NCBI GenBank assembly: GCA_035635475.1
Contig: DASQAZ010000117.1
Span: 21,988 to 85,987, forward strand
Direction of reading: 5' to 3'
Length of the DNA: 64,000 bases
Source: Bacteroidota bacterium
GTDB lineage: Bacteria; Bacteroidota; Ignavibacteria; UBA10030; SZUA-254
Below are positions 6,901 through 46,455 of this stretch, one piece after another. Every line of letters starts with the position of its first letter. The stretch's first letter is position 1. Both the position numbers and the translations under genes were made by a program. Below the pieces are notes generated by a model. The model worked only from the letters and a program-made list of their open reading frames with translations. It did no database searches and was not told where the DNA came from.

Positions 6901-7565
6901 AAATCGGTTCCGTCCTTCCGGCGGTTGACGAGCTCGCCGTTCCAGGATCCCGCCATTGTGGCTGACAGAATCTGGCGTGTGAGATCCGGAGAATGACCGG
7001 GTGACCGGACGATCTCGATATTCCGCCCGACCAGCTCCTCCTCGGTGTAGCCGTACATTTCGCAGAAGGCTGGATTTATAAATAGTATCGTGTTGTCCAA
7101 CCCCGTCAAACAGAACGAGTCGCGCGTGCACGTCAGAGCATAGGCAATGAGCCTGAGTTTTTGCGCGGCCTCAGTCCGGTCGGTCACATCGCGCGATATG
7201 ACGACGACCTGAGCAGGGTTTCCCCTGCTGTCGCGGTTCAGGCTCCCCTGCGATTCGATGTGCCGCACCTGGCCGTCCTTGGCCATGAAACGGTACTCGG
7301 CCCGCCGGCCCACACCCGTCTTGACCGCTTCCTGGAAGACCCGCCGGATATGGTCCCTGTCCTCGGGGTGGACATCCTCGAATGAGTCTGTTCCCCGGGC
7401 GTCGGTATCCCCGAGAATTCTCCGGTAGTTCGGATTAGTATAGAGGCGCCTTCCCTCGAGGTCGAGAACGGCGATCAGTTCATCCACGTTTTCCAGAATG
7501 AGACCCAGCAGGCGGTCATCCAGCAGCAGCTTCGGCGGCGAGATCGGTTTCTTCAATTCCAACAT
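3945..7565 (-). CDS. multi-PAS/GAF hybrid sensor histidine kinase with C-terminal receiver domain
   Basis: 1206 aa with several PAS-like segments. HisKA H-box is [13 protein letters not shown], followed by an HATPase_c region ([16 protein letters not shown]) and a C-terminal REC domain ([10 protein letters not shown]...LVLSDMGLP...KP). Confidence 0.85.
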
Positions 7566-34118: not shown

Positions 34119-34310
34119 ATGGCAAAAGTATGTGACGTGTGCGGAAAAAAGCCGGTCAGCGGCAATAACATTAGCCATGCCCACAATAAGACGCGGCGCC
34201 GGTGGCTCCCGAACCTTCGGAGCGTCCGGGCGCTGATCGATGGACGAGTCCATCGCATGCGCGTGTGTACGACCTGCATCAAGCAAGGCCGCGTCGTAAA
34301 GGCCGCGTAG
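34119..34310 (+). CDS. rpmB: 50S ribosomal protein L28
   Basis: [33 protein letters not shown] is the canonical L28 N-terminus. Confidence 0.9.
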
Positions 34311-34384: not shown

Positions 34385-34999
34385 ATGTCCATCCCGAATT
34401 CGCTGACGGTTCTTCGGATCCTCCTCACCCCGCTCTTCCTCATCCTGCTCTTTTCAGAGTCCTCATTTCTTAAACAGCTTGCCCTTCTCGTCTATATCGT
34501 CGCTGCCCTGACCGACTGGTACGACGGCCGCGTTGCAAGGCAATACGGAAACGTCTCCCGGTGGGGGAAATTTCTCGATCCTTTGGCCGACAAAATTCTT
34601 GCCGCTGCAGCACTTTTCTCTTTTGTCTTCCTCCGGCTCGTGGACGCCTGGATGGTCTGGATCATTGTTGCCCGTGACGCTCTGATCACGAGCCTGCGGA
34701 GCTACGCCGAGTGGAAGAATGAGCCGATTGTCACCTCCAAGACGGCGCAGGCCAAAACGTTCGGCGAGTTTACGATCATCTATTACATCCTCATTGTGTA
34801 TGTTGCAAGCCAGATCGGTTTCATCGAACATCGTCTGGACAATTTGCTCGCAACGCTGCTGGACAAACGGGTCCTGTTCGGCATGATGCTCCTCGTAACG
34901 CTCTCCTCCATCGGAACGGCCGTGATGTATCTCTTTGACAACAGAAAATTCCTGCGCGAACTGTATGCAAGATACTTCGGCGCGGCAGGATCGGGCTGA
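34385..34999 (+). CDS. pgsA: CDP-diacylglycerol--glycerol-3-phosphate 3-phosphatidyltransferase
   Basis: CDP-alcohol phosphatidyltransferase motif DWYDGRVAR...G...DPLADK. Start at internal Met (MSIPNSLTVLRILLTP). The ORF track begins 61 codons earlier with an Arg/Pro-rich non-protein-like extension. Confidence 0.85.
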   Translation: MSIPNSLTVLRILLTPLFLILLFSESSFLKQLALLVYIVAALTDWYDGRVARQYGNVSRWGKFLDPLADKILAAAALFSFVFLRLVDAWMVWIIVARDALITSLRSYAEWKNEPIVTSKTAQAKTFGEFTIIYYILIVYVASQIGFIEHRLDNLLATLLDKRVLFGMMLLVTLSSIGTAVMYLFDNRKFLRELYARYFGAAGSG

Positions 35000-35456
35000 C
35001 CGGGGCCCGGCTTCCTTCCCCATCCGTCTCGTCGCGACAGGTTTATTCTCCGGGTATTCCCCCATCGCACCCGGGACTGCCGGCAGCCTCCTCGGCGTCG
35101 CCCTCTATTTAATCCCCGGATTCGAAGCCGATGCGGTTCTTGCTATAGCGATCATCGTCACATTTCTCCTCGGCGTCTATGCCTCTGCACAAATGGAGAA
35201 CGAGCTCGGCGAAGACCCGCCCGTCGTCGTGATCGATGAGGTCGTTGGGATGTGGATCTCCCTCCTTCTCCTGCCAAAAACTGTATGGGTTGTCTCGCTT
35301 TCGTTTCTCTTATTCCGCGCATTCGACATTCTCAAACCTCCTCCCGCACGCCGGCTCGAGCAGTATCGGCATGGATGGGGAATCATGCTTGATGATGTCG
35401 CGGCGGGGGTCTATGCCAATGTCGCGGCGAGGTTCGTGCTGCTCCTCTTCCGATGA
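34965..35456 (+). CDS. pgpA: phosphatidylglycerophosphatase A
   Basis: PgpA N-terminal motif LVATGLFSGYSPIAPGTAGSL. Start is ambiguous (ATG 34935 or 34965). It overlaps the pgsA 3' end. Confidence 0.7.
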   Translation: MQDTSARQDRADRGPASFPIRLVATGLFSGYSPIAPGTAGSLLGVALYLIPGFEADAVLAIAIIVTFLLGVYASAQMENELGEDPPVVVIDEVVGMWISLLLLPKTVWVVSLSFLLFRAFDILKPPPARRLEQYRHGWGIMLDDVAAGVYANVAARFVLLLFR

Positions 35457-36697
35457 GAAGCATCATCATAACGATCGGCGATGAGCTTTTGATCGGTCAG
35501 GTCATGAACACCAATGCCTCGTTCATCGCAGAAAAACTCACCGCCGCGGGTGTCGAGGTTTGCCGCATGCTCACCGTGTCGGACGATGAGCCGGAGATCG
35601 TGAAAGCGTTCGAGGAGGCGCTTCCCCGGTACGACCTTACCATTGCCACCGGCGGCCTGGGGCCGACGCATGACGATGTCACGAAGAAGGCGGTGTGCCG
35701 GTTTTTCGGTGTTGATCTCGTCCCGAGCCCGGAAGTTCGAAGGACGATCGAGGAATTCCTGCTCCAGCGGAATATTCCCTGGTCGCAGGCGGCGGAAGAG
35801 CAAACTCTGGTGCCCCGCGGAGCGGTGATCATCCCAAACCGCCGGGGTACGGCGCCCGGCGAACTCATCGAGCGGGATCATCGCCATCTCGTCGTCCTGC
35901 CCGGCGTTCCCCACGAGATGGAAGGCATGGTGGAAGAGTTCGTTGTCCCGTTTGTGAAGGAGAGGTCTTCGGGGCAGGTGATTCTCAATCGAACGCTGAA
36001 AACAACAGGCATTTCCGAGTCCGCGCTCGCGGAGCGGATCGGCGCGATCGATCAGCTCCTCGCGCGGGGAGAACGGCTCGCGTTTCTTCCGTCCGCATCC
36101 GGCGTTCGCATGCGCATCTCGGTAACAAACAGCGACCGGGCCGCTGCCGAACGGAGAATCAGCGAGATCGAATCCGTCATCCGTGCCCGCGTGGGGAAAT
36201 ATATCTACGGGGCCGACCAGGAGGAGCTGGAACAAGTGGTGGGCGCCATACTGCGGGAGCGAGGACTGAGAATTGCCGTGGCAGAATCGTGCACCGGAGG
36301 TTTAATCGCCGACAAGATCACGAATGTGCCGGGAAGCTCAGACTATTTCGAGCGCGGGGTCGTCGCCTACAGCAACGCCTCCAAAATTGACCTTCTCCAC
36401 GTGCCATCCCGGCTGATCAATCAGCACGGGGCGGTCAGCCAGGAGGTTGCCGAGGCGATGGCAACCGGCATTCGGACCGTTTCCGGCACCGACATCGGGC
36501 TCTCCACAACCGGAATCGCCGGGCCGGCGGGCGGTACGGAGGAAAAACCGGTGGGTCTGGTCTGGATCGGCTATTCCGACGTTTCACGGACAATTGCCGT
36601 CAAGTTTCAGTTCGGCCGTGAACGCCTTATAATTAAACAACGGGCCGCGCAAGCCTCTCTGGAGATGGTCAGAAGAAGGCTCCTCAAGATCAGGTAG
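35453..36697 (+). CDS. cinA: competence/damage-inducible protein CinA (MoCF-binding domain + C-terminal PncC NMN-deamidase domain)
   Basis: MRSIIITIGDELLIGQVMNTNASFIAEKL N-terminus. C-terminal CinA_C region (AVAESCTGGLIADKITNVPGSS). Confidence 0.9.
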   Translation: MRSIIITIGDELLIGQVMNTNASFIAEKLTAAGVEVCRMLTVSDDEPEIVKAFEEALPRYDLTIATGGLGPTHDDVTKKAVCRFFGVDLVPSPEVRRTIEEFLLQRNIPWSQAAEEQTLVPRGAVIIPNRRGTAPGELIERDHRHLVVLPGVPHEMEGMVEEFVVPFVKERSSGQVILNRTLKTTGISESALAERIGAIDQLLARGERLAFLPSASGVRMRISVTNSDRAAAERRISEIESVIRARVGKYIYGADQEELEQVVGAILRERGLRIAVAESCTGGLIADKITNVPGSSDYFERGVVAYSNASKIDLLHVPSRLINQHGAVSQEVAEAMATGIRTVSGTDIGLSTTGIAGPAGGTEEKPVGLVWIGYSDVSRTIAVKFQFGRERLIIKQRAAQASLEMVRRRLLKIR

Positions 36698-36698
36698 A

Positions 36699-37265
36699 AT
36701 GGCGTCCGTTCGCACGTTCATCGCCTTCAACACACCCGAGGCTATCCGTCAATCGATCACGGCGTTACAATCGGAGCTACGGAAGTCCGGTGCTGATGTC
36801 CGCTGGGAGACGCCCGATACGTTTCACGTCACGATCAAGTTTCTCGGAAATGTGGATGAATCGCAACTCCCGGGGCTCACCCGGCAGATTCAATCGGCGT
36901 GCGAAAATTATCGATCCTTCGAGGTTTGGTACCGGGGGGCGGGGGGCTTCCCGGATCTGAAGCATCCGCGCGTGATCTGGCTGGGGTGCGAAAACGAGGA
37001 TGGAACGCTCGCCAAAATCAGAAGCTCGCTCGATGCCCTCTTGCTCCCGCACGGATTTGAGATTGAAGAGCGGCCCTTCCGCCCACACGTCACGCTCGGA
37101 CGAATCAGGAGTCCGAAGGGCTTGCATTACTTGACTCCAAAGCTGGAAAACCTTACCTTTGAGCCACAGATGGGAACGATTCGCGAAGTTCTCGTCGTGA
37201 AGAGCGTGTTGCGGCCTCAGGGAGCGGCGTACACCGTCTTATCGTCAATTCAACTTCAATCATAA
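36699..37265 (+). CDS. thpR: RNA 2',3'-cyclic phosphodiesterase (ThpR/LigT, 2H family)
   Basis: Two HxT/S-x motifs, HVTIKF and HVTLGR. Confidence 0.75.
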   Translation: MASVRTFIAFNTPEAIRQSITALQSELRKSGADVRWETPDTFHVTIKFLGNVDESQLPGLTRQIQSACENYRSFEVWYRGAGGFPDLKHPRVIWLGCENEDGTLAKIRSSLDALLLPHGFEIEERPFRPHVTLGRIRSPKGLHYLTPKLENLTFEPQMGTIREVLVVKSVLRPQGAAYTVLSSIQLQS

Positions 37266-37269
37266 CAGA

Positions 37270-37692
37270 ATGGCCTCAACACGTATGGGACTGCGAGCCA
37301 AAGGAAAGGCCAAGATCGTGCTCTTCATCGACGACGAAACGCCGTGGCTGAACATGATCAAGACCGCCGTTGAAAACGCACCGTTCGACATCATGACTGC
37401 CGACAGCGGGGAAGCCGCCCTAAGGAAAATCAAGCGGAAAAAGCCGGATTTAATTCTCAGCGATGTGCGGATGCCCGCCATGAACGGGTTCGACCTCTTT
37501 GAAAAAATCCGGAGCGATCCCCGTTACAGGAATGTCCCTTATGTTTTCATGTCCTCCATCGATGATTTTGACGCACGTCGAACCGCAAAGGAAATCGGTG
37601 CGGATGATTACGTGGAGAAACCGATCGACACCGAGCAGGTCGAGTCTATTGTCCTGAAGCTGTTGACGCGGTTCAAGGACAACAAGTCGTAA
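37270..37692 (+). CDS. single-domain response regulator (CheY-like receiver only)
   Basis: Receiver residues are intact: acidic pocket LFIDDETP, phospho-acceptor LILSDVRMP, conserved Lys in VEKP. No output domain. Confidence 0.75.
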   Translation: MASTRMGLRAKGKAKIVLFIDDETPWLNMIKTAVENAPFDIMTADSGEAALRKIKRKKPDLILSDVRMPAMNGFDLFEKIRSDPRYRNVPYVFMSSIDDFDARRTAKEIGADDYVEKPIDTEQVESIVLKLLTRFKDNKS

Positions 37693-37741
37693 GAATTAAG
37701 TCACGTGCCTCGACCATTCACTCATCGTTAAGGAGGGTATC

Positions 37742-38833
37742 ATGGCGGAAGAAATGACACAACGAGAATCGCGCATGCAAGCGCTCCGGATTGCGATCGA
37801 GCAGATCGAGAAGCAGCACGGTAAGGGAGCGATCATGAAGCTCGACGGGGGGCCGATCGCCAAAATCGAGGCAATTTCGACCGGCTCGATCTCCCTCGAC
37901 GGCGCGACCGGCATCGGCGGCATCCCGCGGGGCCGTGTCATCGAGGTGTTCGGCCCGGAGGCGTCGGGTAAGACGACGCTCTGCCTGCATGTTATCGCAG
38001 AAGCGCAGCGGAAGAGCGGCATCGCGGCGTTTATCGACACCGAACATGCACTCGATATCGCTTACGCAAAGAGACTCGGCGTCGACGTCAACAACTTGCT
38101 GCTCTCGCAGCCCGAGTACGGCGAACAGGCGCTGGAGATCGTGGAGACACTTGTAAGAAGCGGGGCGCTCGATGTCATCGTGATCGATTCCGTCGCCGCT
38201 CTCACTCCCCGCGCCGAAATTGAAGGCGAGATGGGCGATCCGACGATGGGAGTGCAGGCGCGGCTCATGTCGCAGGCGCTTCGGAAGCTTACGGCGGCAA
38301 TCAGCAAATCGAAAACATCGGTGATCTTCACCAACCAGCTGAGACAAAAAATCGGCATCATGTTCGGGAATCCGGAAACAACAACCGGAGGCAACGCACT
38401 GAAGTTTTATGCCTCGCTCCGGCTCGACGTCCGTCGCATCGAAGCAATCAAGGACGGACAGAACATTGTCGGGAATCGGGTAAAGGTCAAGGTTGTGAAG
38501 AATAAGGTCGCCCCGCCCTTCAAAGAGGCTCAATTTGATATTCTGTATAACGAGGGGATCTCAAAGCTCGGCGATCTGATCGATATTGCGGTCGACCATA
38601 ACGTGATCTCCAAGAGCGGTTCGTGGTTCGGCTATGGAAGCGAACGGATCGGCCAGGGGCGCGACGCTGTCAAGAAGTTCCTGCTCGACAACGAGAGGAT
38701 GGCGAAAGAGATCGATCTCGTGATGCGCAAGAAACTGGGCTTGATCGAGGAGGACGCTCAGCCAAAGCATGTCAAGCCGGAACCCGCGGCCCCCAGGCAC
38801 GAAATCGCGTTGAAAAAGCCGGCGAGGGTCTGA
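37742..38833 (+). CDS. recA: recombinase RecA
   Basis: Walker [11 protein letters not shown]. RecA loops L1/L2 ([36 protein letters not shown]). Confidence 0.95.
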
Positions 38834-38857
38834 CCCGCCGGGATCGGACCCTGCGTC

Positions 38858-39505
38858 ATGCTCGTTACAAAGATCGAATGGCAGAAACGGGATCCTCACC
38901 GCGTGAACCTGTTCATCGACGGTGAGTTTGCCTTCGGCCTCCAGGACGAGGTTCTGCTCCGCAGCGGGATCCGCAAGGGAGATCAGCTCTCGGAGGAAGA
39001 ACTGGAAACAATGCAGGCCTCCGGGGAATTTGCGCTTGCCAAACGACAAGCCCTGAGGATTCTCGCCCGCCGCCTCAGGAGCGAAGCCGAAATCAGGACA
39101 CACCTTCTCGAAAAAGAGTTCCATCCACGAACCGTCGACCGCGTCATTCTCAAACTCCGGGAGCTGCGCCTGGTGGACGACCTGCGCTTCGCGCGCGCGT
39201 GCGTCCACGACATGCGGCTGCGGAGAGCCCTGGGCCGCATCGCACTCGAGCGTCAGCTTCGATTAAAGGGCGTTCCGCGATCGACGATCATGGAGGTGCT
39301 TGGCGAAGTCGGAGGACGGGAAGACGATGCTGCAATCGCGCTCCAGGCGGTAACCAAGCTTCTGAAACGCTATAGCACATCCCGAAAGAAGCTTTTGCCC
39401 GAGCAGCAGCGCGCACGGGCGATTCAGTTCCTTGCACGGCGGGGCTTCGACGGCGAGACGATCTCCCGGGTGATAACGAGAGCGACGCGGGAGGACCGTT
39501 CGTGA
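38858..39505 (+). CDS. recX: recombination regulator RecX
   Basis: RecX three-repeat helical architecture. It lies immediately downstream of recA. Confidence 0.8.
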   Translation: MLVTKIEWQKRDPHRVNLFIDGEFAFGLQDEVLLRSGIRKGDQLSEEELETMQASGEFALAKRQALRILARRLRSEAEIRTHLLEKEFHPRTVDRVILKLRELRLVDDLRFARACVHDMRLRRALGRIALERQLRLKGVPRSTIMEVLGEVGGREDDAAIALQAVTKLLKRYSTSRKKLLPEQQRARAIQFLARRGFDGETISRVITRATREDRS

Positions 39506-39529
39506 GGCGGGGGAGGAACAACGGCGCGC

Positions 39530-40195
39530 ATCATTTTTGATATCGAAACACTCGGCCTGCCGATCGAATCGTTCGACGAAGCGCGCCGGGCCTACCTGTT
39601 GAAGTCAGCGGAGACACAACACGCGAGGGAAACCGAGGTCCAGAAGCTGAGCCTCAGTCCGCTGACGGCCCAGATCGTCGCGATCGGCATGCTGAATCCC
39701 GACACCATGGCGGGGAAAGTTCTGTACCAATCGGCAAAACAAGAGCAGTCCGGGCCTGACGAGCGCAACATCGAGTACCACGCCGGCACTGAAGAGCAGA
39801 TCGTGCGCCAATTCTGGGATGACGTGAGGCACTACGATCAGTTTATCACTTTTAATGGCCGGAGCTTCGACTGTCCGTTTCTGATGATTCGGTCTGCCAT
39901 GCTGTCGATTCCGCCTACGCGCAGTCTCATGCCCTACCGGTACGACTCATCGACTCACTGCGATTTACTCGATCAGTTGACATTTTACGGGGCCGTCCGC
40001 CGCTTCAATCTCGATTTCTACTGCAAGTCGTTCGGGATCAAGAGCCCGAAAAGCGAAGGCGTCTCCGGCCTCGACATCGGTCCGATGTTTCGTGAAGGCA
40101 AGTTCAAGGAGATCGCACAGTACTGCGCAGGCGATGTGATCGCCACGGCGGAGCTGTTCAGGAAGTGGGATGCGTTCATTAATATCAAAGCCTAG
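39530..40195 (+). CDS. 3'-5' exonuclease, PolB-exonuclease-like RNase-H fold (DNA_pol_B_exo2/YprB-like)
   Basis: Exo I IIFDIETLGLP, Exo II ITFNGRSFDCPFL, Exo III YCAGDVIATAELF. The first canonical start (TTG 39599) lies downstream of Exo I. The frame is open from the recX stop (39506) with GGGGGAGG immediately upstream, so initiation is probably at ATC/ATT 39530/39533 or the sequence contains an error. Confidence 0.7.
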   Translation: MIFDIETLGLPIESFDEARRAYLLKSAETQHARETEVQKLSLSPLTAQIVAIGMLNPDTMAGKVLYQSAKQEQSGPDERNIEYHAGTEEQIVRQFWDDVRHYDQFITFNGRSFDCPFLMIRSAMLSIPPTRSLMPYRYDSSTHCDLLDQLTFYGAVRRFNLDFYCKSFGIKSPKSEGVSGLDIGPMFREGKFKEIAQYCAGDVIATAELFRKWDAFINIKA

Positions 40196-40204
40196 CTCCT
40201 GGCG

Positions 40205-41062
40205 ATGACCGGGCAGATCCGCTCCGCCGGCGCTTCCTCTCCCCGGCTTGACGAAACAGATTTCCTGGTAGTCGACGTCGAGACAACAGGACTGTCCGCC
40301 GAAGGCGGGGATCGCGTCTGCGAACTCGGGGCTGTCAAGCTGCGGGGCGGCGCCGTCATCGCCACGCTCGGAACATTGATCGATCCCTGCCGGCCTATCT
40401 CAAACGGAGCGTACGCCGTCAATCACATCTCCCCCGAGATGCTTCGGGACGCGCCGGTCTTCACCGGTGTGGCCGAGCGGTTGTGGGGCATGATGCAGGA
40501 CTCGATTCTTGTGGCCTACAACGCCCCCTTCGATCTCTCCTTTCTTGCCGTCGAATTCCGTCTCCTTGGCTATCCGCCCATCCTCAATCCCGTAGTCGAT
40601 GCTTTGGCGATTGCCCGCCGTCTGCTTCCAGGGCTCGAACGATACCCTCAGGGAAATGTGGCACGAATCCTCGGAATCGGGGGCTCGGTGCAACACCGCG
40701 CGCTCGAGGATGCGATGGTCACCGCGAAGATCTTCACGGTTTTTTCATCGATCCTCAAGGCGTACGATTGCACGGCCGTCTCTGATCTGAACCGCAGGGA
40801 TCTACTTCAGGTGCTCTACAACCGGAGAATGAGCATCCTGACCGATGCCCTGTCGAGCGCACGCGATGTCTGGATCAAGTACCTCTCCCCTTCCAACGGG
40901 GAGATTTCGGACCGGATCGTCTCGCCCAAGGAACTCAGCGGGAAAAGCCCCGGCGCGGAGGCCCGCTATCTCATCGCCTATTGCCACACGGCAAAGGGCG
41001 AGAGAGATTTCAGGATCGACCGCATCCTCGATCTCCGGTTGATGGATTCCAAATCGGTGTGA
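40205..41062 (+). CDS. DnaQ-like DEDDh 3'-5' exonuclease fused to a C-terminal WYL domain
   Basis: Exo I VVDVETTGLS, Exo II LVAYNAPFDLSFL, Exo III HRALEDAMVTA (DEDDh). The C-terminal ~100 aa carry the WYL signature VWIKYLSPSNGEISDRIVSPKELSG...YLIAYCHTAKGERDFRIDRILDL. Confidence 0.7.
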   Translation: MTGQIRSAGASSPRLDETDFLVVDVETTGLSAEGGDRVCELGAVKLRGGAVIATLGTLIDPCRPISNGAYAVNHISPEMLRDAPVFTGVAERLWGMMQDSILVAYNAPFDLSFLAVEFRLLGYPPILNPVVDALAIARRLLPGLERYPQGNVARILGIGGSVQHRALEDAMVTAKIFTVFSSILKAYDCTAVSDLNRRDLLQVLYNRRMSILTDALSSARDVWIKYLSPSNGEISDRIVSPKELSGKSPGAEARYLIAYCHTAKGERDFRIDRILDLRLMDSKSV

Positions 41063-41083
41063 CCCCGCAGCGGGGGGCGGGAA

Positions 41084-44000
41084 TCAGGAGACGGGATGAA
41101 TCGGAAGGCGGATCACGAACGCAGTGCCCTCGCGGGCGTCATTACGGGCTTCCACGCTGCCGCGGTGACTCTCCACGATCCACTTGACAAGCGCCAGCCC
41201 CAATCCTGTTCCCCCTCCCATTGAGCTCTCCGATTGCCCGCTCCTGAACGGATCAAAGATATTCGGGAGGATTTCGGACGAAATGCCCTTGCCGGAGTTG
41301 AAAAATCTGAAGACGAGTTCATGTTCCTCCGCCGTGTAGCTCAGGCGAATTCTTCCCTTGGCAGGGGTAAACTTGATCGCATTGTCGAGAAGATTAAAGA
41401 GTATGTGGCGCATCTGGCCGGGGTCGGCCCGGATAGACACCGGGGGTCCCTTTCTCAGCACCATGCTGATTTTCTTCTCGCGCGTTAATATCTGCGATTC
41501 ACGATAGAATTCCCTTAACAGGTCGTAGAAATTGATATCCGTTAGATCCAGTTTGAATGTGCCGGCCTGCATCCTGCTTAAACTAAGCAGCTCGTCGACG
41601 ACCCTCGTGAGGTGGAGGACTTCATCGTACGTCTCGCTCAATGCCCTCCGCAGCGACTGGCTGGAGAGGTCGGGCCTCAGGGCGTTCTCGAGCTGACTCC
41701 TGAGGATTGTGAGGGGCGTGCGCAACTGATGGGAGGCCATCGATGAAAGACTCAGCGTTCGCTGAGCGCGCGCGCGAATCTTCTCCACAACCTCATTGAT
41801 GTCCCGCGCCAGGTCATGCCTCCTCCGGGCCGGGTCTGTGCCCAGCCGTTGAAATCCTTCGGCGGAAGGGAGCCGCTCTTCGGAACCGGTATCGAATAGT
41901 CTCTCGATCCGGACGGCCGCCTGCCACAATACTTCTTCTGCCTTCGCGATCTCGCTGATATCGCGAGCGACCCCGATGAGGCCCAGGACCGTCCCTTTGC
42001 CGTCCCTGATCTGCGACGTGCTGAGAAAGACGGGAAAGTCCCTGCCGTCCTTCGTCCGGTTGAGCAGTTCCCCCGCCCAACCGCGCCGGCGGGAGTGTTC
42101 GAAGATCTGCCGTGAGAGCTCCGGCGATGTCGAGGGAGAACGAACGACATCCGGGAATTTCCCCAGGATTTCCTTCTCGGCGTAGCCGTACTTGTCAAGA
42201 AACGCCCGGTTGGCAAAGATGATCCGGTTTTCGAGATTCGTTATGCAGATCATCTCGGTGGTACTCTCCAGGGCCTGCGCAAGAAGCCGGATTTGTTTTT
42301 CAGTCTGCCTCTGCTGCGTAATATCGCGTCCGGTCGTCGAGGCTCCGCTGATCCAACCGGCCTCCTCTGTAATCGGCGAGACCGTGAGAGACAACATGAT
42401 CCGCCGTCCGTCCTTATGCAGGCACTCTGTTTCGTAATGCTCCAGCGCCTCTCCGCGCTTGATCGTGTCGAGGATTTGCCGCAGATCATCGGGATGGTCC
42501 GCCGGAATCAGAGTCGAGATCGGGCGGCCGATCATGTCCTCGGCGGCATATCCGTACACGCGCTCAGCCCCCCGGTTCCAGCTCGTGATGATGCCCTCCG
42601 TGGTCTGACTGATGATGGCATCGTCCGAAGATTCGATGATCGCCGCAAATTTGATCAGCGCCTCCTGAGCCCGCTTGTGCACGGTCATGTCGACGATCGA
42701 TACCAGAACCGTCGAATACGTTTCCTCACTCCCCGGCGGAACCGACCACTTCAGATAGATGTTGATCGTCTCCCCCCGGAAAGTCTTATTGACATCCTCG
42801 CTCTCGAAGACCGTCTTGCCCTGGGCGACCGCGGTCACCTCTTCTCTGAACACTTGATAGGATTCCCGGCTCAAGACTCTCTGCAGTCCCTCCAGGAAGT
42901 CCGATTTGCTTCGGGCTTCATAGAGACGAAGGGTCGCCTGGTTCACGTCGACCACTTTCACCTTCGCGGCACATTCCGCCACCGCCTCCGGGTGCGTTCT
43001 GAAATGCAGGGCAACGTCCGAAACCCCCTTCGCGCGCAATCCGTCGACGAACTTCTTGACCTCCGAGAAGTCTTCTTCCCAGAGCGAGATGGGTGAGTTT
43101 TCGAAGAATCCCCGGTATCGCTCCCTGCTCTGAAAGAGCGTCTCCTCCGCCTGGATCCGTTCCCCGATCTCGTGAGCGAGAGCGTCATTCACCCCCGCCA
43201 GTTCGGCGGTTCGTTCGCGAACGCGTTGTTCAAGCTCGTCGTTGAGCTTCCGGACTTCCTCTTCCGCCTGCCAGCGTTCGGTGATGTCCTGAGACGTGCC
43301 TGCCATGCGCTCGGGGATGCCGGCATCGGATTTGATCACCTTCCCCTCCCCATGGACGATGCGGACGATGCCGTCGGGACGAACGATGCGGTGGTCGAAC
43401 GCAAACGGCTCTCCGGTCCTTTCCGATTGCTCGACACGGGCCTTCACTCTCGCCCGGTCGTCGGGATGGACAGCCGTCAGGAAGCTTTCGTATGTCCCCT
43501 CGAACCCCTTCCGGTTCACTCCGTAGATATCATAGAGCTCGTCGGACCACGTGATCCGGTTTTCAACGATATTCCACTCCCAGCTCCCGATATGGGCCTG
43601 CTCCTGCGCCTCGGTCAGCATTCTGTTGACCTCGCTCAGCTGCACCGTTCGCAGGCGGACCCGGTCCTCGAGCTCATCCCGGGCCGTTTGAAGGGATTCA
43701 ATCGCCTCGCGGCGCTCGGCGCCTGCAGCAGCCAGGCAGAGAGTCGTCAGAGCTACGACCCCCATGAACATTTGCAGCGCCAAGAGGCGCTCGTCAATCG
43801 TATGGCCCTTGAAGGGCCCTGATCCCAATGACTCAAACCAGATCGCAACGATCGAGAGAACAAACGTCGAGGTCGTGGCTCCCTTCTGTCCGAACCGCAA
43901 GGCTGCCCAGATCAGGACGGGAAAGATATAGTAGGGTCTGATGTATCGTGCCAGAGCGGGCTGGAACCAATCGCCGAAATTTATCATCGCTACCGCGGCC

Positions 44001-44596
44001 AGAACGACGACGAGGATTGCAGCTTCGAGTTTTCGCAAAAACGAATGACCCTGGGGCGGCGTGCGAAGCCACGCGGTGATCAACGGACAAACGACAAGCG
44101 CTCCGATCGCATCGCCGATCCACCAGGTCATCCAGGTGTAGCCGAAACCTCCCGAATCAATTTTCCCGGCGATCCACAGGCTTGACACGCCGATGCTGGG
44201 ACTGACGGCGGTGCTGAAGAGCACGCACAGGATCACAAAACCGAGAACATCCCGCACCCGTTCGAGCCCTACATGAAACCCGCCCCGGCGGAACAGGTAA
44301 ACCGCAACAACCGCTTCCAGCATGTTGCCGATTCCGATCGAGAGCGCAACCGGGATCGGCGCGCCCACCGTGGCATTTGCCAGGAATGCGCCGAGCAGCA
44401 CACCCGGCCACAGCCGGTATCCGAAGATCAGAAGGGCAGCAATGGATATTCCCGTGGGGGGCCAGACGAGCGTGGCAAATCCGGAGACCGCATTGATCGC
44501 TAATCCCAGTCGCGCCGCCCCGAAATAGACGGCAGCGAGAATTACAATCTCCACCGCTTGCCGGGCGCGGGAGGGCGTTTCAGTTCGCGGGGACAT
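41084..44596 (-). CDS. sensor histidine kinase with N-terminal MASE1 membrane domain and four PAS domains
   Basis: MASE1-like multi-TM N-terminus. Repeated PAS segments. HisKA H-box SMASHQLRTPLTILRSQLE. HATPase_c (GTGLGLALV). Start taken at MSPRTETPS (44596). The ORF opens at 44647. Confidence 0.85.
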   Translation of the reverse strand: MSPRTETPSRARQAVEIVILAAVYFGAARLGLAINAVSGFATLVWPPTGISIAALLIFGYRLWPGVLLGAFLANATVGAPIPVALSIGIGNMLEAVVAVYLFRRGGFHVGLERVRDVLGFVILCVLFSTAVSPSIGVSSLWIAGKIDSGGFGYTWMTWWIGDAIGALVVCPLITAWLRTPPQGHSFLRKLEAAILVVVLAAVAMINFGDWFQPALARYIRPYYIFPVLIWAALRFGQKGATTSTFVLSIVAIWFESLGSGPFKGHTIDERLLALQMFMGVVALTTLCLAAAGAERREAIESLQTARDELEDRVRLRTVQLSEVNRMLTEAQEQAHIGSWEWNIVENRITWSDELYDIYGVNRKGFEGTYESFLTAVHPDDRARVKARVEQSERTGEPFAFDHRIVRPDGIVRIVHGEGKVIKSDAGIPERMAGTSQDITERWQAEEEVRKLNDELEQRVRERTAELAGVNDALAHEIGERIQAEETLFQSRERYRGFFENSPISLWEEDFSEVKKFVDGLRAKGVSDVALHFRTHPEAVAECAAKVKVVDVNQATLRLYEARSKSDFLEGLQRVLSRESYQVFREEVTAVAQGKTVFESEDVNKTFRGETINIYLKWSVPPGSEETYSTVLVSIVDMTVHKRAQEALIKFAAIIESSDDAIISQTTEGIITSWNRGAERVYGYAAEDMIGRPISTLIPADHPDDLRQILDTIKRGEALEHYETECLHKDGRRIMLSLTVSPITEEAGWISGASTTGRDITQQRQTEKQIRLLAQALESTTEMICITNLENRIIFANRAFLDKYGYAEKEILGKFPDVVRSPSTSPELSRQIFEHSRRRGWAGELLNRTKDGRDFPVFLSTSQIRDGKGTVLGLIGVARDISEIAKAEEVLWQAAVRIERLFDTGSEERLPSAEGFQRLGTDPARRRHDLARDINEVVEKIRARAQRTLSLSSMASHQLRTPLTILRSQLENALRPDLSSQSLRRALSETYDEVLHLTRVVDELLSLSRMQAGTFKLDLTDINFYDLLREFYRESQILTREKKISMVLRKGPPVSIRADPGQMRHILFNLLDNAIKFTPAKGRIRLSYTAEEHELVFRFFNSGKGISSEILPNIFDPFRSGQSESSMGGGTGLGLALVKWIVESHRGSVEARNDAREGTAFVIRLPIHPVS

Positions 44597-44643
44597 TGAT
44601 ATGGGGGGGAAAGGGGCCGGGGGCTTCACCCCGCCGGTTCGAG

Positions 44644-45318
44644 TCAACGATCGATGAGGATGAACCCTTCCCCATGCATCGTGTGGATGAGCTTTCTTGA
44701 AAAGCCTTTATCGAGGGCATTGCGCAGGTAGCTGATGTACACATCGACGATGTTCGTACCGGTTTCGAACTTGTACCCCCAAATCTGCTCAATCAGCCGT
44801 TTACGCGTGAGGATTTGGTTCTTATTTCGAAGAAGAAATTCCAGGAGTGAAAACTCCTTTTCACTCAGCGGAATCTTTTCGCCCGCGCGCTCCACGGTCC
44901 GCCGTACGACATCCATCGTGAGATCGGCTGCCTGCAGAACGGCTGTCCGGGAGAAACCGGAGCGCCGGAGAACGGCTTCGATACGCGCGACCAGCTCGCC
45001 GGAGTCGAACGGCTTTGCGAGGTAATCGTCGGCCCCGGTCCTCAGGCCTTCGATGCGGTGCTCGACCCCCTCCAATGCGGTCAGAATAAGCACGGGAGTC
45101 GCATACGACGCAGCGCGGAGATCACGCAATACCTCCAGACCCGACTTCTTCGGCAGATTGAGGTCGAGCACGATTATATCATATCCCCCTCGTCTCGCCC
45201 GCGCCTCTGCATCGATGCCATCCCCCGCGATCTCGACGAAATTGCCGGCCCGTTCGAGCTGTTCCTTGATTGATCGCGCCAGCTTCTTCTCGTCTTCGAC
45301 GAGCAGGATGCGAATCAT
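44644..45318 (-). CDS. OmpR-family two-component response regulator (REC + winged-helix Trans_reg_C)
   Basis: MIRILLVEDE...IIVLDLNLP receiver. C-terminal wHTH with LTRKRLIEQIWGY. ATG at 45318..45316. The ORF track extends it 43 codons upstream. Confidence 0.85.
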   Translation of the reverse strand: MIRILLVEDEKKLARSIKEQLERAGNFVEIAGDGIDAEARARRGGYDIIVLDLNLPKKSGLEVLRDLRAASYATPVLILTALEGVEHRIEGLRTGADDYLAKPFDSGELVARIEAVLRRSGFSRTAVLQAADLTMDVVRRTVERAGEKIPLSEKEFSLLEFLLRNKNQILTRKRLIEQIWGYKFETGTNIVDVYISYLRNALDKGFSRKLIHTMHGEGFILIDR

Positions 45319-45745
45319 CGGCTTTCCATCTACCAATTCCCGACGCATGAGATTCGTCCGGTCATGGTGATCCAAAAGGGTGGCACTGCCACCGATCGAA
45401 GGGTCAGCGCCCGCTTGAAGGGCCATGTGCCCCGACCGCTGAGGCAAGCCCTGTTGCGCGGATCTGAAGCAACGAATGAGACAGGATCCCCTCGACGAAA
45501 TGCCACGCCCCCGAAAGTCACGGAAATATAGGGAGCCTTGGGGTCATTGTCAATTTGAAATCCTTTTCCGGGATGCTCCCGGCCGCAAATGGGGCCGGAG
45601 CGATGGATATTCAACCGCCCGGGGGTAGCAAAGGGAAGGGTTTCTAAGAAAATTCTAATGAACATTAGCGCATTTTAACTTGCTAATTGCCAGGTTTGAG
45701 ATTACCTTGAAATGGTGGATTAGTGGAGGCTGTACATGGGGTGAT

Positions 45746-45780
45746 GGGAGGGTGAAGCATAGGTCGCCCTCCTTTTTTTT
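45746..45780 (+). terminator. rho-independent terminator (plus-strand orientation)
   Basis: GGGAGGG-(14 nt loop)-CCCTCC followed by T8 (45773..45780). There is no annotated plus-strand CDS upstream of it, so it may mark a candidate sRNA 3' end. Confidence 0.5.
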
Positions 45781-45828
45781 GCCCCCAAAGCTCCCGCTCT
45801 CGATCCAGGGAAGTGCGGGGTTTTTTAT

Positions 45829-46455
45829 TTAATACCCCCCGCGAAACTTCTCCCTGAGATCGAGAATATGCAGCGCGATAGCGTTACGAACTTCCGCTGC
45901 CTCCCTCGTAAGATCGAAGAACACCTCACCCTCAACGATGCGCCGCTGCCTCATCTCACGGAGAGCGGCAATCGAGCAATTCGCCGCTGCGAGCCCGCGC
46001 TTGCAGTAGGCGATGTTGCCGCCCAGCTCTTCCAGATCGTCGCCGATCGACGTACCCCCTGCGATCTTTGCCGGAGCAATCATCGCGCTCGAAACAAAAT
46101 CGACCACTGCCGAAGCGAGGCGTGCATGTTCGGGAAGCGAGTCGACGAGACGCAGTGCGCGCAGCGCGAACGATTGCGCGAGCAAATAGACGGGAATCCC
46201 CGCACAATCCCCTACACAGAACGGCTCATTTTCTCCGAAGCCCACGGAGGCCTTCCACTCCTCCCCCTCATCGAGCTCTTCATCCTCACGATCCGGTGCA
46301 GCGCCCCACACGGGGCCCGGCATCCATCCCCATCCTATCGCACGCGCAATGGAATGAGCTCGGAAGATGAGGTCCATACACCGCTCGACCTTCCTGTCCT
46401 GCTCGCGCATGAACTCCTCCCACCGAAACTCATCCCATATTTCCTTTTCGTCCAT
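45829..46455 (-). CDS. hypothetical protein
   Basis: Start taken at MDEKEIWDEFRWEEFMREQ (46455). The ORF opens at 46536 with a low-complexity extension. Acidic stretch DREDEELDEGEE. No recognisable family. Confidence 0.4.
   Translation of the reverse strand: MDEKEIWDEFRWEEFMREQDRKVERCMDLIFRAHSIARAIGWGWMPGPVWGAAPDREDEELDEGEEWKASVGFGENEPFCVGDCAGIPVYLLAQSFALRALRLVDSLPEHARLASAVVDFVSSAMIAPAKIAGGTSIGDDLEELGGNIAYCKRGLAAANCSIAALREMRQRRIVEGEVFFDLTREAAEVRNAIALHILDLREKFRGGY

Follow-up and report, generated by a model that had tools for sequence, protein, structure and literature searches.

A recA-recX gene block continued by two predicted 3'-5' exonucleases, one fused to a WYL domain, in an Ignavibacteria-type clade

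Gene order and spacing of the block

The window is a 64,000-nt stretch of DNA, and an ORF check of it confirmed both the coordinates of all ORFs of the block and their location on the + strand. The gene order is (rpmB)-pgsA-pgpA-cinA-thpR-REC-recA-recX-exoB-exoWYL, and every Pfam call for these genes is above its curated cut-off. The first-pass annotation had described a co-directional series from cinA to the second exonuclease. These genes are present, but the conserved run is longer, i.e., it begins before cinA and includes pgsA and pgpA as well as, probably, rpmB (34119-34310, +) at its upstream end.

The first gene of the conserved block, pgsA (34385-34999, +), encodes a CDP-alcohol phosphatidyltransferase (PF01066, E 2e-35) and was found in 10 long loci. 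Its orthologues are about 207 aa long with the N-terminus MSIPNS, and ATG 34385 is the likely start rather than the upstream GTG 34202 of the ORF list. The following pgpA (34935-35456, +; phosphatidylglycerophosphatase A, PF04608, E 2e-42) is conserved in position and overlaps both neighbours, namely the 3' end of pgsA and the beginning of cinA. cinA (35453-36697, +) combines MoCF_biosynth, CinA_KH and CinA domains (Pfam E 6e-57, 1e-34 and 5e-18), while thpR, also named ligT (36699-37265, +), encodes an RNA 2',3'-cyclic phosphodiesterase of the 2H family (PF02834, E 3e-26; TIGR02258 equivalog, 142 bits vs. a cut-off of 65.7). Next is a stand-alone, REC-only CheY-like receiver of 140 aa (37270-37692, +), for which PF00072 (E 2e-25) is the sole family over cut-off and which has the canonical acidic pocket, phospho-acceptor Asp and Lys. 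This gene lies between thpR and recA in every long related locus. recA (37742-38833, +; PF00154, E 2e-134, plus RecA_C) and recX (38858-39505, +; three RecX three-helix domains, PF21982, PF02631 and PF21981) precede the two exonuclease genes exoB (39521-40195, +) and exoWYL (40205-41062, +).

Gaps of 1-49 bp had been claimed for the series. This holds from cinA to recX (1, 4, 49 and 24 bp, in this order) and for exoB-exoWYL (9 bp), while the recX-exoB gap agrees only with a non-canonical exoB start. The REC-recA spacer (37693-37741) is the only regularly long gap of the block, with 13-113 bp across loci (mostly 36-66). A comparison of the spacer sequences across loci revealed a conserved AAGGAGG Shine-Dalgarno sequence and no conserved palindrome; an internal promoter or processing site may be located inside. 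A simple promoter/terminator scan of the locus gave a chance-level outcome.

Convergent to the block, a PAS histidine kinase (41084-44647) and an OmpR-type response regulator (44644-45447) occupy 41084-45447 on the - strand. They are part of a variable insertion zone 3' of exoWYL and outside of the conserved block, i.e., the pair is common only to the close relatives L081-L083 and L131, and other loci have different genes there.

The two exonucleases and the WYL domain

ExoWYL is a 285-aa fusion, as supported by Pfam, the AlphaFold (AF2) model and its orthologues. It consists of a DEDDh (DnaQ/RNase T-type) exonuclease domain (residues 21-177; 40265-40735, +) and a WYL domain (residues 210-278; 40832-41038, +). 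The exonuclease part matches PF00929 (E 1e-30) with the catalytic residues D24, E26, D110, H164 and D169, and the DEDDh set is conserved in 114-115 of 115 sequences. The two-domain make-up recurs in more than 100 orthologues, which are about 280 aa long. The AF2 model (pLDDT 91.6, pTM 0.89) matches the PolC, DinG, epsilon and ExoX exonucleases as well as solved WYL domains in a structure search. Among NCBIfam models, the best matches of the exonuclease domain are the PRK07883 DEDD-exonuclease, PolC and DinG; PRK07883 is on top (E 1e-39), with a whole-protein score of 136 vs. a cut-off of 495.

ExoB is a PolB-exonuclease-like DEDDy 3'-5' exonuclease (PF10108, E 5e-22; PF13482) whose residues D7, E9, N112, D117, Y201 and D205 are invariant in 20/20 orthologues. 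Both family calls of the first-pass annotation, PolB-exo-like and DnaQ(DEDDh), are thus borne out by Pfam as well as by NCBIfam and structure, and the conserved residues predict that both enzymes are catalytically intact.

The start of exoB is anomalous in the window, since no canonical start codon precedes the catalytic DxE motif. The first one (TTG 39599) is 93 bp past recX and downstream of the ExoI motif IIFDIET (39530-39550, with D-x-E at 39539-39547), such that a start there would remove this motif. Non-canonical candidates are ACG 39521 and ATC 39530. We propose ACG 39521, the position of which equals the ATG of relatives: the third codon before V[VI]FDIET is ATG in 12 relatives, whereas the window and L082 have ACG there and L004 has ATC. 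In the stretch from ACG to TTG, the window and L082 show 5 synonymous and 0 non-synonymous differences. The TGA stop of recX (39503-39505) is in frame with exoB, and the public annotation of exoB is truncated (198 aa). Despite the start anomaly, exoB is under strong purifying selection, with a dN/dS of 0.07 (exoWYL 0.17, recX 0.19).

The WYL call on the C-terminus of ExoWYL stands: PF13280 matches with E 4e-11 (43 bits vs. a cut-off of 21.8), the PADLOC WYL model agrees, and structure comparison with solved WYL structures identifies the part as a WYL domain. It folds into a five-stranded Sm/SH3-like barrel that follows a helical linker (residues 166-217), and neither Pfam nor the AF2 model shows an HTH or WCX domain. 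The nearest sequence match among solved entries is the C-terminal WYL domain of Pif1 (8bnv, E 2e-9; 8bns, E 5e-6), and the Arg residues proposed for ssDNA contact in the DdPif1 model are conserved in ExoWYL (PMC9964779). In T. elfii Pif1, the WYL domain is an accessory ssDNA-binding module that supports helicase activity (bioRxiv 10.1101/163188; PMC9964779). The WYL domain of ExoWYL thus presumably binds ssDNA. The ssDNA-sensing role assigned to it earlier is not established, given the missing HTH and WCX domains and the proximity to the accessory Pif1 type.

Conservation of the recX-exonuclease linkage

We compared 25 non-redundant related loci (<90% exoWYL identity), 16 of which extend upstream to recX. 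In 16/16 of these, recX is found just upstream of exoWYL (exoB is in between in 14 and absent in 2) and the block order is repeated with comparably small gaps. This tight order recurs across related loci, i.e., the linkage is not chance, and the suspected conservation of the neighbourhood is confirmed. The first-pass annotation had named two outcomes that would speak against it, namely exonuclease genes without recA linkage in related genomes and a C-terminus without WYL match; we find linkage in the relatives and a WYL domain.

Typical projected gaps are about 0-11 bp for recX-exoB and about 0-17 bp for exoB-exoWYL; in some loci the genes overlap, by about 24 bp at most. In gene calls made independently for a 499-kb contig, exoWYL is 3 bp from recX. 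Such near-zero or overlapping gaps in nearly all loci suggest translational coupling. Where exoB is lost, exoWYL has not drifted away but is located 3-28 bp from recX. Insertions pile up right after exoWYL and almost never occur within the block. exoB is absent from the nearest long relatives (L083, L104, L131), which shows that the exoB/exoWYL pair is not obligatory.

The recA linkage of exoWYL is limited to one Ignavibacteria-type clade and thus probably reflects about one evolutionary event. Since the flanking housekeeping genes (ABC-transporter, rpmB, BioY, hydrolase) are syntenic within the clade as well, part of the conservation may be phylogenetic inertia. Beyond the clade, clustering at 50% identity splits the DEDDh-WYL family into at least about 20 clusters. 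Homologues from Chloroflexota and Deltaproteobacteria (33-41% identity) have no recA, recX, exoB or defence genes among their neighbours. That is, they stand alone in uninformative surroundings, such that the protein needs no RecA/RecX neighbours.

The Kapabacteria-like loci L048 and L063 show recX, then one gene, then a Cho-like DEDDh-GIY-YIG fusion, which in L048 also has a UVR motif. This is a second type of DEDDh exonuclease beside recX, with a partner nuclease domain typical of repair proteins.

Proposed role and relation to known systems

We propose, with about an even chance of being right, that ExoB and ExoWYL are co-expressed 3'-end ssDNA-trimming exonucleases that work with RecA/RecX and that this lineage has added to an operon of the cinA-thpR-recA-recX type. 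We infer that the block is co-transcribed, that DNA and not RNA is the substrate of both enzymes, and that they act on the substrates of RecA. RecA, its filament inhibitor RecX and both exonucleases would then be translated from one message. ExoWYL would be a 3'-5' exonuclease of ssDNA, held on ssDNA tails by its WYL barrel as a built-in binding module, while ExoB would trim 3' termini as a proofreading-type DEDDy exonuclease. Both would process 3' ssDNA ends, i.e., the sites of RecA filaments and the primers of repair synthesis, either to clear away 3' ends that are damaged or non-homologous, or to curtail 3' tails and thereby, alongside RecX, restrain recombination. The clade of Ignavibacteria-like bacteria would thus likely share an apparently undescribed DNA-end-trimming add-on to the RecA system.

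Alternatively, and in line with the sensing idea of the first-pass annotation, the WYL domain could be an allosteric switch instead of a tether, such that ssDNA or another damage-derived nucleic-acid ligand activates an otherwise idle exonuclease. This would imply a damage response that is linked to RecA and works post-translationally and independently of SOS. DriD and PafBC are activated by ssDNA binding to their WYL domains (PMC9186387, PMC11804915), CapW has been deposited with bound ssDNA (PDB 9c5g), and all three are top structural matches. Furthermore, the confident inter-domain packing (see pTM above) and two long linker helices could pass a signal, while the conserved basic residues fit switch and tether equally. 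Tethering and gating are indistinguishable from sequence. We nevertheless regard a switch as unlikely, since the known ones need HTH repositioning in WCX-mediated dimers, ExoWYL has neither domain, and the WYL sequence is nearer to the Pif1 type, where the domain merely adds ssDNA affinity.

It is rather improbable that the genes are neighbours without shared function, i.e., inherited synteny in a young clade with exonucleases of general housekeeping. The syntenic flanks and the distant homologues away from recA are in line with this, but the near-zero gaps, the position of the insertions and the retained recX proximity of exoWYL upon exoB loss argue against it. In one version, ExoWYL would be the Pol III epsilon-like proofreader of the clade. 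JGI pipelines annotate it accordingly ('DNA polymerase III epsilon subunit family exonuclease'), and TIGR00573, a dnaq domain model, is over cut-off. However, the epsilon equivalogs are below theirs (TIGR01406 90 vs. 222.7; PRK05711 90.8 vs. 196), and the C-terminus is a WYL domain and not an alpha-binding tail.

We consider it similarly improbable that RNA 3' ends are the target of ExoWYL and/or ExoB, in concert with ThpR, with recA nearby due to shared stress regulation: sequence and structure comparisons give DNA exonucleases as top matches (PolC, DinG, epsilon, ExoX), ExoB falls into the PolB proofreading lineage, the exonuclease genes are directly 3' of recX and five genes from thpR, and Deinococcus has cinA-ligT-recA without them (PMC6300522).

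The anti-phage activity raised in the first-pass annotation, considered here as an anti-phage/anti-plasmid module triggered by RecA-generated or phage-derived ssDNA, finds no support and is very improbable: catalogues of CRISPR- or defence-associated domains include both WYL and DEDDh, separate ExoWYL domains are hit by the PADLOC models PDC-S48, Cas-associated DEDDh and WYL, and Cap18 and Cas2-DEDDh are structurally related, but these PADLOC matches are domain-level with none full-length and none for ExoB, the surroundings are vertically inherited housekeeping genes of even GC composition along the block without integrase, transposase or defence genes nearby, and IMG/VR holds no relatives of ExoWYL and only 27-31% identical ones of ExoB.

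The closest known systems include two operon types. recA-recX is a known operon type with standard co-transcription, found in many bacteria, and recA of the window is likewise directly followed by recX; pgsA-cinA-recA adjacency occurs in Bacillus subtilis, too. The order cinA, thpR, recA is shared with the radiation-induced cinA-ligT-recA cluster/operon described for every Deinococcus species (PMC6300522). The novelty assigned to the recA operon earlier is hence restricted to what the window adds to these operons, namely REC between thpR and recA and the two exonuclease genes after recX. Our literature search found neither addition in descriptions of such operons and no published description of recA-recX with two exonucleases. 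The DEDDh-WYL fusion is not new as an architecture and is already listed by Makarova et al. 2014 as WYL fused to a '3'->5' exoRNase' in a defence/CRISPR context (PMC4012209). The two-domain architecture is the same, whereas these fusions are catalogued only, with no recA/recX link or function reported there.

WYL-bearing Pif1 (T. elfii, D. desulfuricans, Sulfurihydrogenibium) also processes DNA and has one WYL domain, at its C-terminus, and no HTH/WCX; its catalytic part is an SF1B helicase, while that of ExoWYL is a DEDDh exonuclease. PafBC, DriD, CapW and BrxR are transcription factors, in contrast to ExoWYL, which lacks their HTH and WCX dimerisation domains and has a fused nuclease as output. 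E. coli exonuclease I (SbcB) carries an SH3-like domain that may be considered analogous to the WYL barrel. This is an analogy of architecture and not membership in the ExoI/ExoX group, i.e., the barrels have no sequence-level relation and ExoI possesses an additional domain at its C-terminus. E. coli sbcB and exoX are not known to belong to the recA operon. Finally, the DnaQ-Cho type fusions (DEDD exonuclease plus GIY-YIG, PRK07883 group) have the exonuclease domain that matches ExoWYL best among NCBIfam models, with GIY-YIG (plus UVR in L048) as C-terminal partner in place of WYL.

The recA-recX-exoB-exoWYL block in the window

On the + strand of the window, recA and recX are followed by the exonuclease genes exoB (PF10108 PolB-like DEDDy exonuclease) and exoWYL (DEDDh exonuclease-WYL fusion). 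The first-pass annotation had claimed such a pair appended to the recA-recX run, which is confirmed by the ORF list and the Pfam scan. The true upstream start of the + strand run is pgsA (34385-34999), followed by pgpA (34935-35456), cinA (35453-36697), thpR (ligT; 36699-37265; TIGR02258 equivalog), a gene for a 140-aa receiver-only protein (REC; 37270-37692), recA (37742-38833), recX (38858-39505), the PolB-exonuclease-like exoB (end at 40195; PF10108/PF13482) and exoWYL (40205-41062; 285 aa; PF00929 with E 1e-30 at residues 21-177 and PF13280 with E 4e-11 at residues 210-278). rpmB is probably also part of the upstream section of this run. Adjacency and co-direction of cinA, thpR, recA and recX are kept in related loci, and the GC content is even across the block. 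The neighbours are housekeeping genes, with an ABC/FtsX transporter on the upstream side and BioY and an alpha/beta hydrolase on the downstream side. The genes for a PAS histidine kinase and a response regulator are convergent with exoWYL and run towards its end.

Rfam and tRNA scans of the window gave no matches, and a consensus scan for sigma-70 promoters and intrinsic terminators gave counts at the chance level of shuffled sequence. Within the REC-recA spacers of 13 loci, no conserved SOS-box-like palindrome is evident. GC-rich inverted repeats, e.g., GGTGGTCCCCCACCAC, are found in this spacer in the related loci L084 (~6964-7026), L097 (~388-455) and L003 (~7076-7134); their sequence is not conserved across relatives and none is obvious in the window. 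They could represent an attenuator or processing site. Another element, an A/T-rich motif like AAAWTTGTAMATT, is located ~25-45 nt upstream of pgsA in low-GC relatives (L001, L002, L003, L084, L093, L100, L102) and comes in most of them after a hairpin and T-run 3' of rpmB. Together this looks like a terminator and a conserved promoter at the start of the transcription unit. The motif is absent upstream of pgsA in the high-GC window.

In the window, as in every long related locus, the stand-alone, CheY-like REC gene has the same fixed place in the block, with thpR on one side and recA on the other. This suggests phosphorylation-dependent control tied to the recA operon. We know of no described parallel for a receiver protein within a recA operon.

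Conservation within the clade and homologues outside it

Related loci were gathered by a genome scan, a metagenome scan for which only the WYL half served as seed, and one look-up with independent gene calls, and the window's proteins were mapped onto all collected loci. The genome scan with the full-length exoWYL alignment settled on generic DnaQ motifs, with at least four true orthologous loci among the matches listed. When defining non-redundant loci by less than 90% exoWYL identity, 25 loci result (identity between clusters 51-88%, median 62% for all pairs). More than 2000 relatives of exoWYL are found in the database. The top 120 of them are 243-311 aa long (most ~280 aa), nearly all are annotated as RNase_T+WYL, and organism names, where given, are all Ignavibacteria or Bacteroidota.

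Among the non-redundant loci, 16 of 25 reach far enough to place recX, and it is directly upstream of exoWYL in all of them (16/16). exoB lies between the two in 14/16, while the remaining 2 (L083/L131 and L104) are without it and show a recX-exoWYL gap of 3-28 bp. The adjacency of exoB and exoWYL is also found on at least 6 further short contigs. The full order pgsA-pgpA-cinA-thpR-REC-recA-recX-exoB-exoWYL is kept in ten long loci. Projected gaps are ~0-11 bp from recX to exoB and ~0-17 bp from exoB to exoWYL, with overlaps up to ~24 bp in some loci (exceptions are L001, L085 and L102). Since recX linkage is kept in 16/16 loci, the exonuclease genes are not scattered away from recA in these loci, and the claimed extension of the recA operon holds at the level of neighbourhood conservation. 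This evidence is from one clade only.

The loci L083, L104 and L131-L133 are the window's nearest long relatives (exoWYL 67-72% identical) and have lost exoB from the operon; assembly GCA_964512655.1 belongs to the lineage that lacks it there. Insertions are heaped just after exoWYL (kinase and response regulator, methyltransferase, others), with almost none inside the block; the sole ORF insertion there, among twelve long loci compared, is an extra 187-aa ORF without Pfam match between exoB and exoWYL of L001 (9386-9949). The variable zone after exoWYL (41063-45830 in the window; also in L001, L002, L084, L093 and L102) is located between otherwise syntenic genes. It holds the PAS histidine kinase and an OmpR-type regulator in the window, L083 and L131, one common ORF family in L002, L084, L093 and L102, whose L002 member is a SAM methyltransferase by Pfam, and unrelated ORFs in other loci.

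Outside the clade, full-length DEDDh-WYL homologues (33-41% identity) are found in Chloroflexia, Anaerolineae and Deltaproteobacteria MAGs. None of them has recA, recX or exoB within 10 kb, and their neighbours are uninformative: an ArsR-type HTH protein, a methyltransferase, an MFS transporter and unknowns. DEDDh-WYL proteins thus form a family that stands on its own, and a single lineage has taken it up into the recA operon. A linker+WYL profile was also searched against 1.8 billion representatives. Among its best 150 matches, 28 also carry an N-terminal exonuclease domain, and ~20 of these 28 are full length (265-290 aa).

Two further arrangements were observed. In the Kapabacteria-like MAGs L048 (8353-11755) and L063 (2798-6269), recX is followed by a YbbR-like gene and a 586-587-aa DEDDh-GIY-YIG fusion, which is Cho-like (UVR motif detected in L048); L048 also has five small ORFs without Pfam matches between recA and recX. 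This hints that DEDDh repair nucleases recur close to recX in this region of the tree. In the high-GC metagenome contigs L114 (1040-2664) and L124 (3806-6417), and probably also in L127, a PafC-type regulator (HTH_PafC-WYL-WCX) is placed tail-to-tail with a DnaQ-like gene (PF00929 exonuclease), i.e., a WYL/DEDDh neighbourhood that is unfused.

Domains of exoWYL and the start of exoB

The N-terminal domain of exoWYL (PF00929: 107.6 bits, cut-off 24, residues 21-177) has an RNase H-like exonuclease fold. Its ExoI/II/III residues D24, E26, D110, H164 and D169 are kept in 114-115/115 orthologues. Comparison values are highest for the PolC exonuclease (26.0), followed by S. aureus DinG bound to ssDNA (23.6), E. 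coli epsilon (23.5), ExoX (21.3) and RNase T (20.6). In agreement with this, the best NCBIfam matches are PRK07883-type DEDD exonuclease, PolC and DinG. An identity as DnaQ proper (Pol III epsilon) was rejected: TIGR01406 scores 90 vs. a cut-off of 222.7 and PRK05711 90.8 vs. 196, such that domain-level TIGR00573 alone passes among the epsilon-related models, and the C-terminus is a WYL domain rather than an alpha-binding tail.

That the second exonuclease ends in a WYL domain had been predicted from the sequence and is borne out by PF13280 (43.1 bits, cut-off 21.8, residues 210-278); the PADLOC WYL models (defence-system profiles) also match with E 9e-12. The domain forms an Sm/SH3-like five-stranded barrel that can be superposed on WYL domains of solved structure. 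Its nearest sequence matches among solved entries are the Pif1 helicases from Deferribacter (8bnv, E 2e-9) and Sulfurihydrogenibium (8bns, E 5e-6), which rank ahead of or alongside PafBC, PafC and BrxR. The match covers Pif1 residues 434-509, which make up the C-terminal WYL domain of these helicases (PMC9964779). In the profile alignment, exoWYL R237, R267, R270 and R273 correspond to R464, R495, R498 and R501 of DdPif1, a WYL-bearing bacterial Pif1 helicase, where they are proposed to contact ssDNA (PMC9964779). These four positions are Arg in 81-96% of orthologues (R/K in 97% at 267). In T. elfii Pif1, the WYL domain has been demonstrated to serve as an accessory module for ssDNA binding (bioRxiv 10.1101/163188).

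The first-pass annotation had related this WYL domain to those of the PafBC, DriD, BrxR and CapW regulators. exoWYL has neither an HTH (no Pfam HTH family; the N-terminus is the exonuclease domain) nor a WCX extension (no PF25583 match; the protein ends 7 residues after WYL) and is therefore not a regulator of the PafBC/DriD/BrxR type.

For exoB, both PF10108 (79 bits, cut-off 24) and PF13482 (38.6, cut-off 22) match. The ExoI DxE, ExoII NxxxFD and ExoIII YxxxD motifs are present, with D7, E9, N112, D117, Y201 and D205 invariant in 20/20 sequences. No close solved relative was found, only weak matches to archaeal PolB exonuclease domains. To our knowledge, no PF10108 member has been studied; in the literature, we found the family only in a classification paper (PMC3985635).

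The mechanical ORF start of exoB is TTG 39599, i.e., 93 bp after recX, and the small recX-exoB gap of the first-pass annotation does not hold for this canonical start. The ExoI motif IIFDIET (39530-39550) is in frame upstream of it, and in the stretch 39503-39601 the window has no ATG, GTG or TTG between the recX TGA and the exoB DxE motif. In 12 related loci, an ATG is placed exactly three codons before V[VI]FDIET; the equivalent position is ACG (39521) in the window and the 95%-identical L082, and ATC in L004. Public annotation of the window's lineage shortens exoB to 198 aa or less. From ACG 39521 to TTG 39599, window and L082 differ by 5 synonymous and 0 non-synonymous substitutions, and whole-gene dN/dS is lower for exoB (0.07) than for exoWYL (0.17) and recX (0.19), which places exoB under strong purifying selection. 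Such selection indicates that the region upstream of the first canonical start is translated. Given this stretch and the dN/dS of 0.07, we consider exoB to be functional, and a decaying pseudogene is ruled out by the same values. Its translation probably begins at a non-canonical codon or is coupled to the termination of recX.

Read-through of the recX TGA into a RecX-exoB fusion is possible for the window itself, where the recX stop is in frame with exoB, as is a putative recX stop in L004. We do not favour it, since the stop is out of frame in L082, whose recX and exoB overlap in different frames with a TTG at hand, and the best 120 exoB homologues, at 168-238 aa, are all too short for a RecX fusion.

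Around ACG 39521 we also observed the in-frame recX TGA 5 codons upstream, a Shine-Dalgarno-like run GGGGGAGGA at 39509-39517, and ATC/ATT at 39530/39533 downstream. L004, which has come to its ATC independently, has an in-frame TGA 12 codons upstream of it, putatively the recX stop. Judged by eye (window 39480-39520 vs. L082 900-960), the recX 3' end of the window appears to carry a ~22-nt insertion or duplication (GCGGGAGGA...GGGGGAGGA). It alters the RecX C-terminus, puts the recX stop into the exoB frame and removes the TTG from which exoB could start in L082.

Interpretation and relation to known systems

Operons built around recA have classically pointed the way to accessory factors of recombination; RecX, CinA and LigT all came to notice in this manner first. 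Both exonuclease superfamilies are already known, and the DEDDh-WYL fusion has been catalogued: Makarova et al. 2014 include WYL joined to a "3'->5' exoRNase" in their enzymatic architectures and place the YolD proteins of SOS operons in the WYL superfamily (PMC4012209). The main text of Mueller et al. 2019 makes no mention of an exonuclease class (PMC6789036). In Deinococcus, cinA-ligT-recA is known to form an operon induced by radiation (PMC6300522). The literature searched on WYL with exonuclease/DnaQ and on Ignavibacteria with recA/recX gave no description of the operon or of the fusion's function, in line with the assumption that the arrangement is undescribed, and we found no experimental DNA-repair literature for Ignavibacteria-type Bacteroidota. 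New are the fixed position of the fusion behind recX, the presence of a PF10108 exonuclease as its partner, a receiver protein as part of the operon, and the clade-wide conservation of the whole arrangement.

The observation behind the first-pass annotation is confirmed, while its interpretation is supported in part only. In the reading best supported by the sequence data, exoB and exoWYL would be expressed together and may process 3' ends as a pair joined to RecA/RecX. Here, exoWYL would act on ssDNA as a 3'-5' exonuclease that is tethered by its own ssDNA-binding barrel, and exoB would be a proofreading-type trimmer of 3' termini. The pair would either clean invading 3' ends (promoting recombination) or shorten 3' tails alongside RecX (restraining it).

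The first alternative to such tethering is an allosteric ssDNA switch, i.e., the WYL domain gates the exonuclease. WYL research is mostly about transcription factors. For DriD and PafBC, the activating ligand is ssDNA (PMC9186387, PMC11804915). In the most far-reaching version, ssDNA bound to the WYL barrel would directly gate an enzyme instead of a transcription factor, for which exoWYL would be the first case among WYL proteins: a damage-activated 3'-5' exonuclease, made stoichiometrically with RecA and RecX, that sets with its DEDDy partner the length or cleanliness of 3' ssDNA tails as a dedicated nuclease arm of RecA-filament control. We regard this version as rather unlikely. If true, it would concern a phylum in which the response to DNA damage has hardly been studied. 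As a further twist, exoB would be made only via coupled re-initiation or read-through after recX, an idea prompted by its missing canonical start codon in the window.

A second alternative assigns the exonucleases an RNA-end role together with thpR. In a third one, the arrangement reflects inherited synteny only or an epsilon-like housekeeping role; the wider region is also syntenic, as seen from clustering of flanking ORFs. Least supported is a defence module, the anti-phage role considered by the first-pass annotation, since PADLOC-DB 2.0 matches are domain-level only (the exonuclease part of exoWYL alone to PDC-S48, profile 4-167 of 411, plus generic DEDDh and WYL models; none for exoB), no full-length system protein with partner genes was found at the locus, its neighbours are housekeeping genes, and a phage origin is rejected, with no exoWYL relatives and only remote exoB relatives in IMG/VR.

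The locus makes two uncharacterised exonuclease families (PF10108 and DEDDh-WYL) candidate RecA-pathway components of Ignavibacteria-type Bacteroidota. exoWYL is also a simple system for studying WYL function on an enzyme, with 285 aa, a confident model and obvious point mutants. The proposed tethering would follow the logic of Pif1, and the architecture resembles that of ExoI. Genetic work in E. coli has made known the control of 3' tails by ExoI and ExoX; should the proposed role be correct, exoB and exoWYL would provide a bacterial counterpart to it within the recA operon itself.
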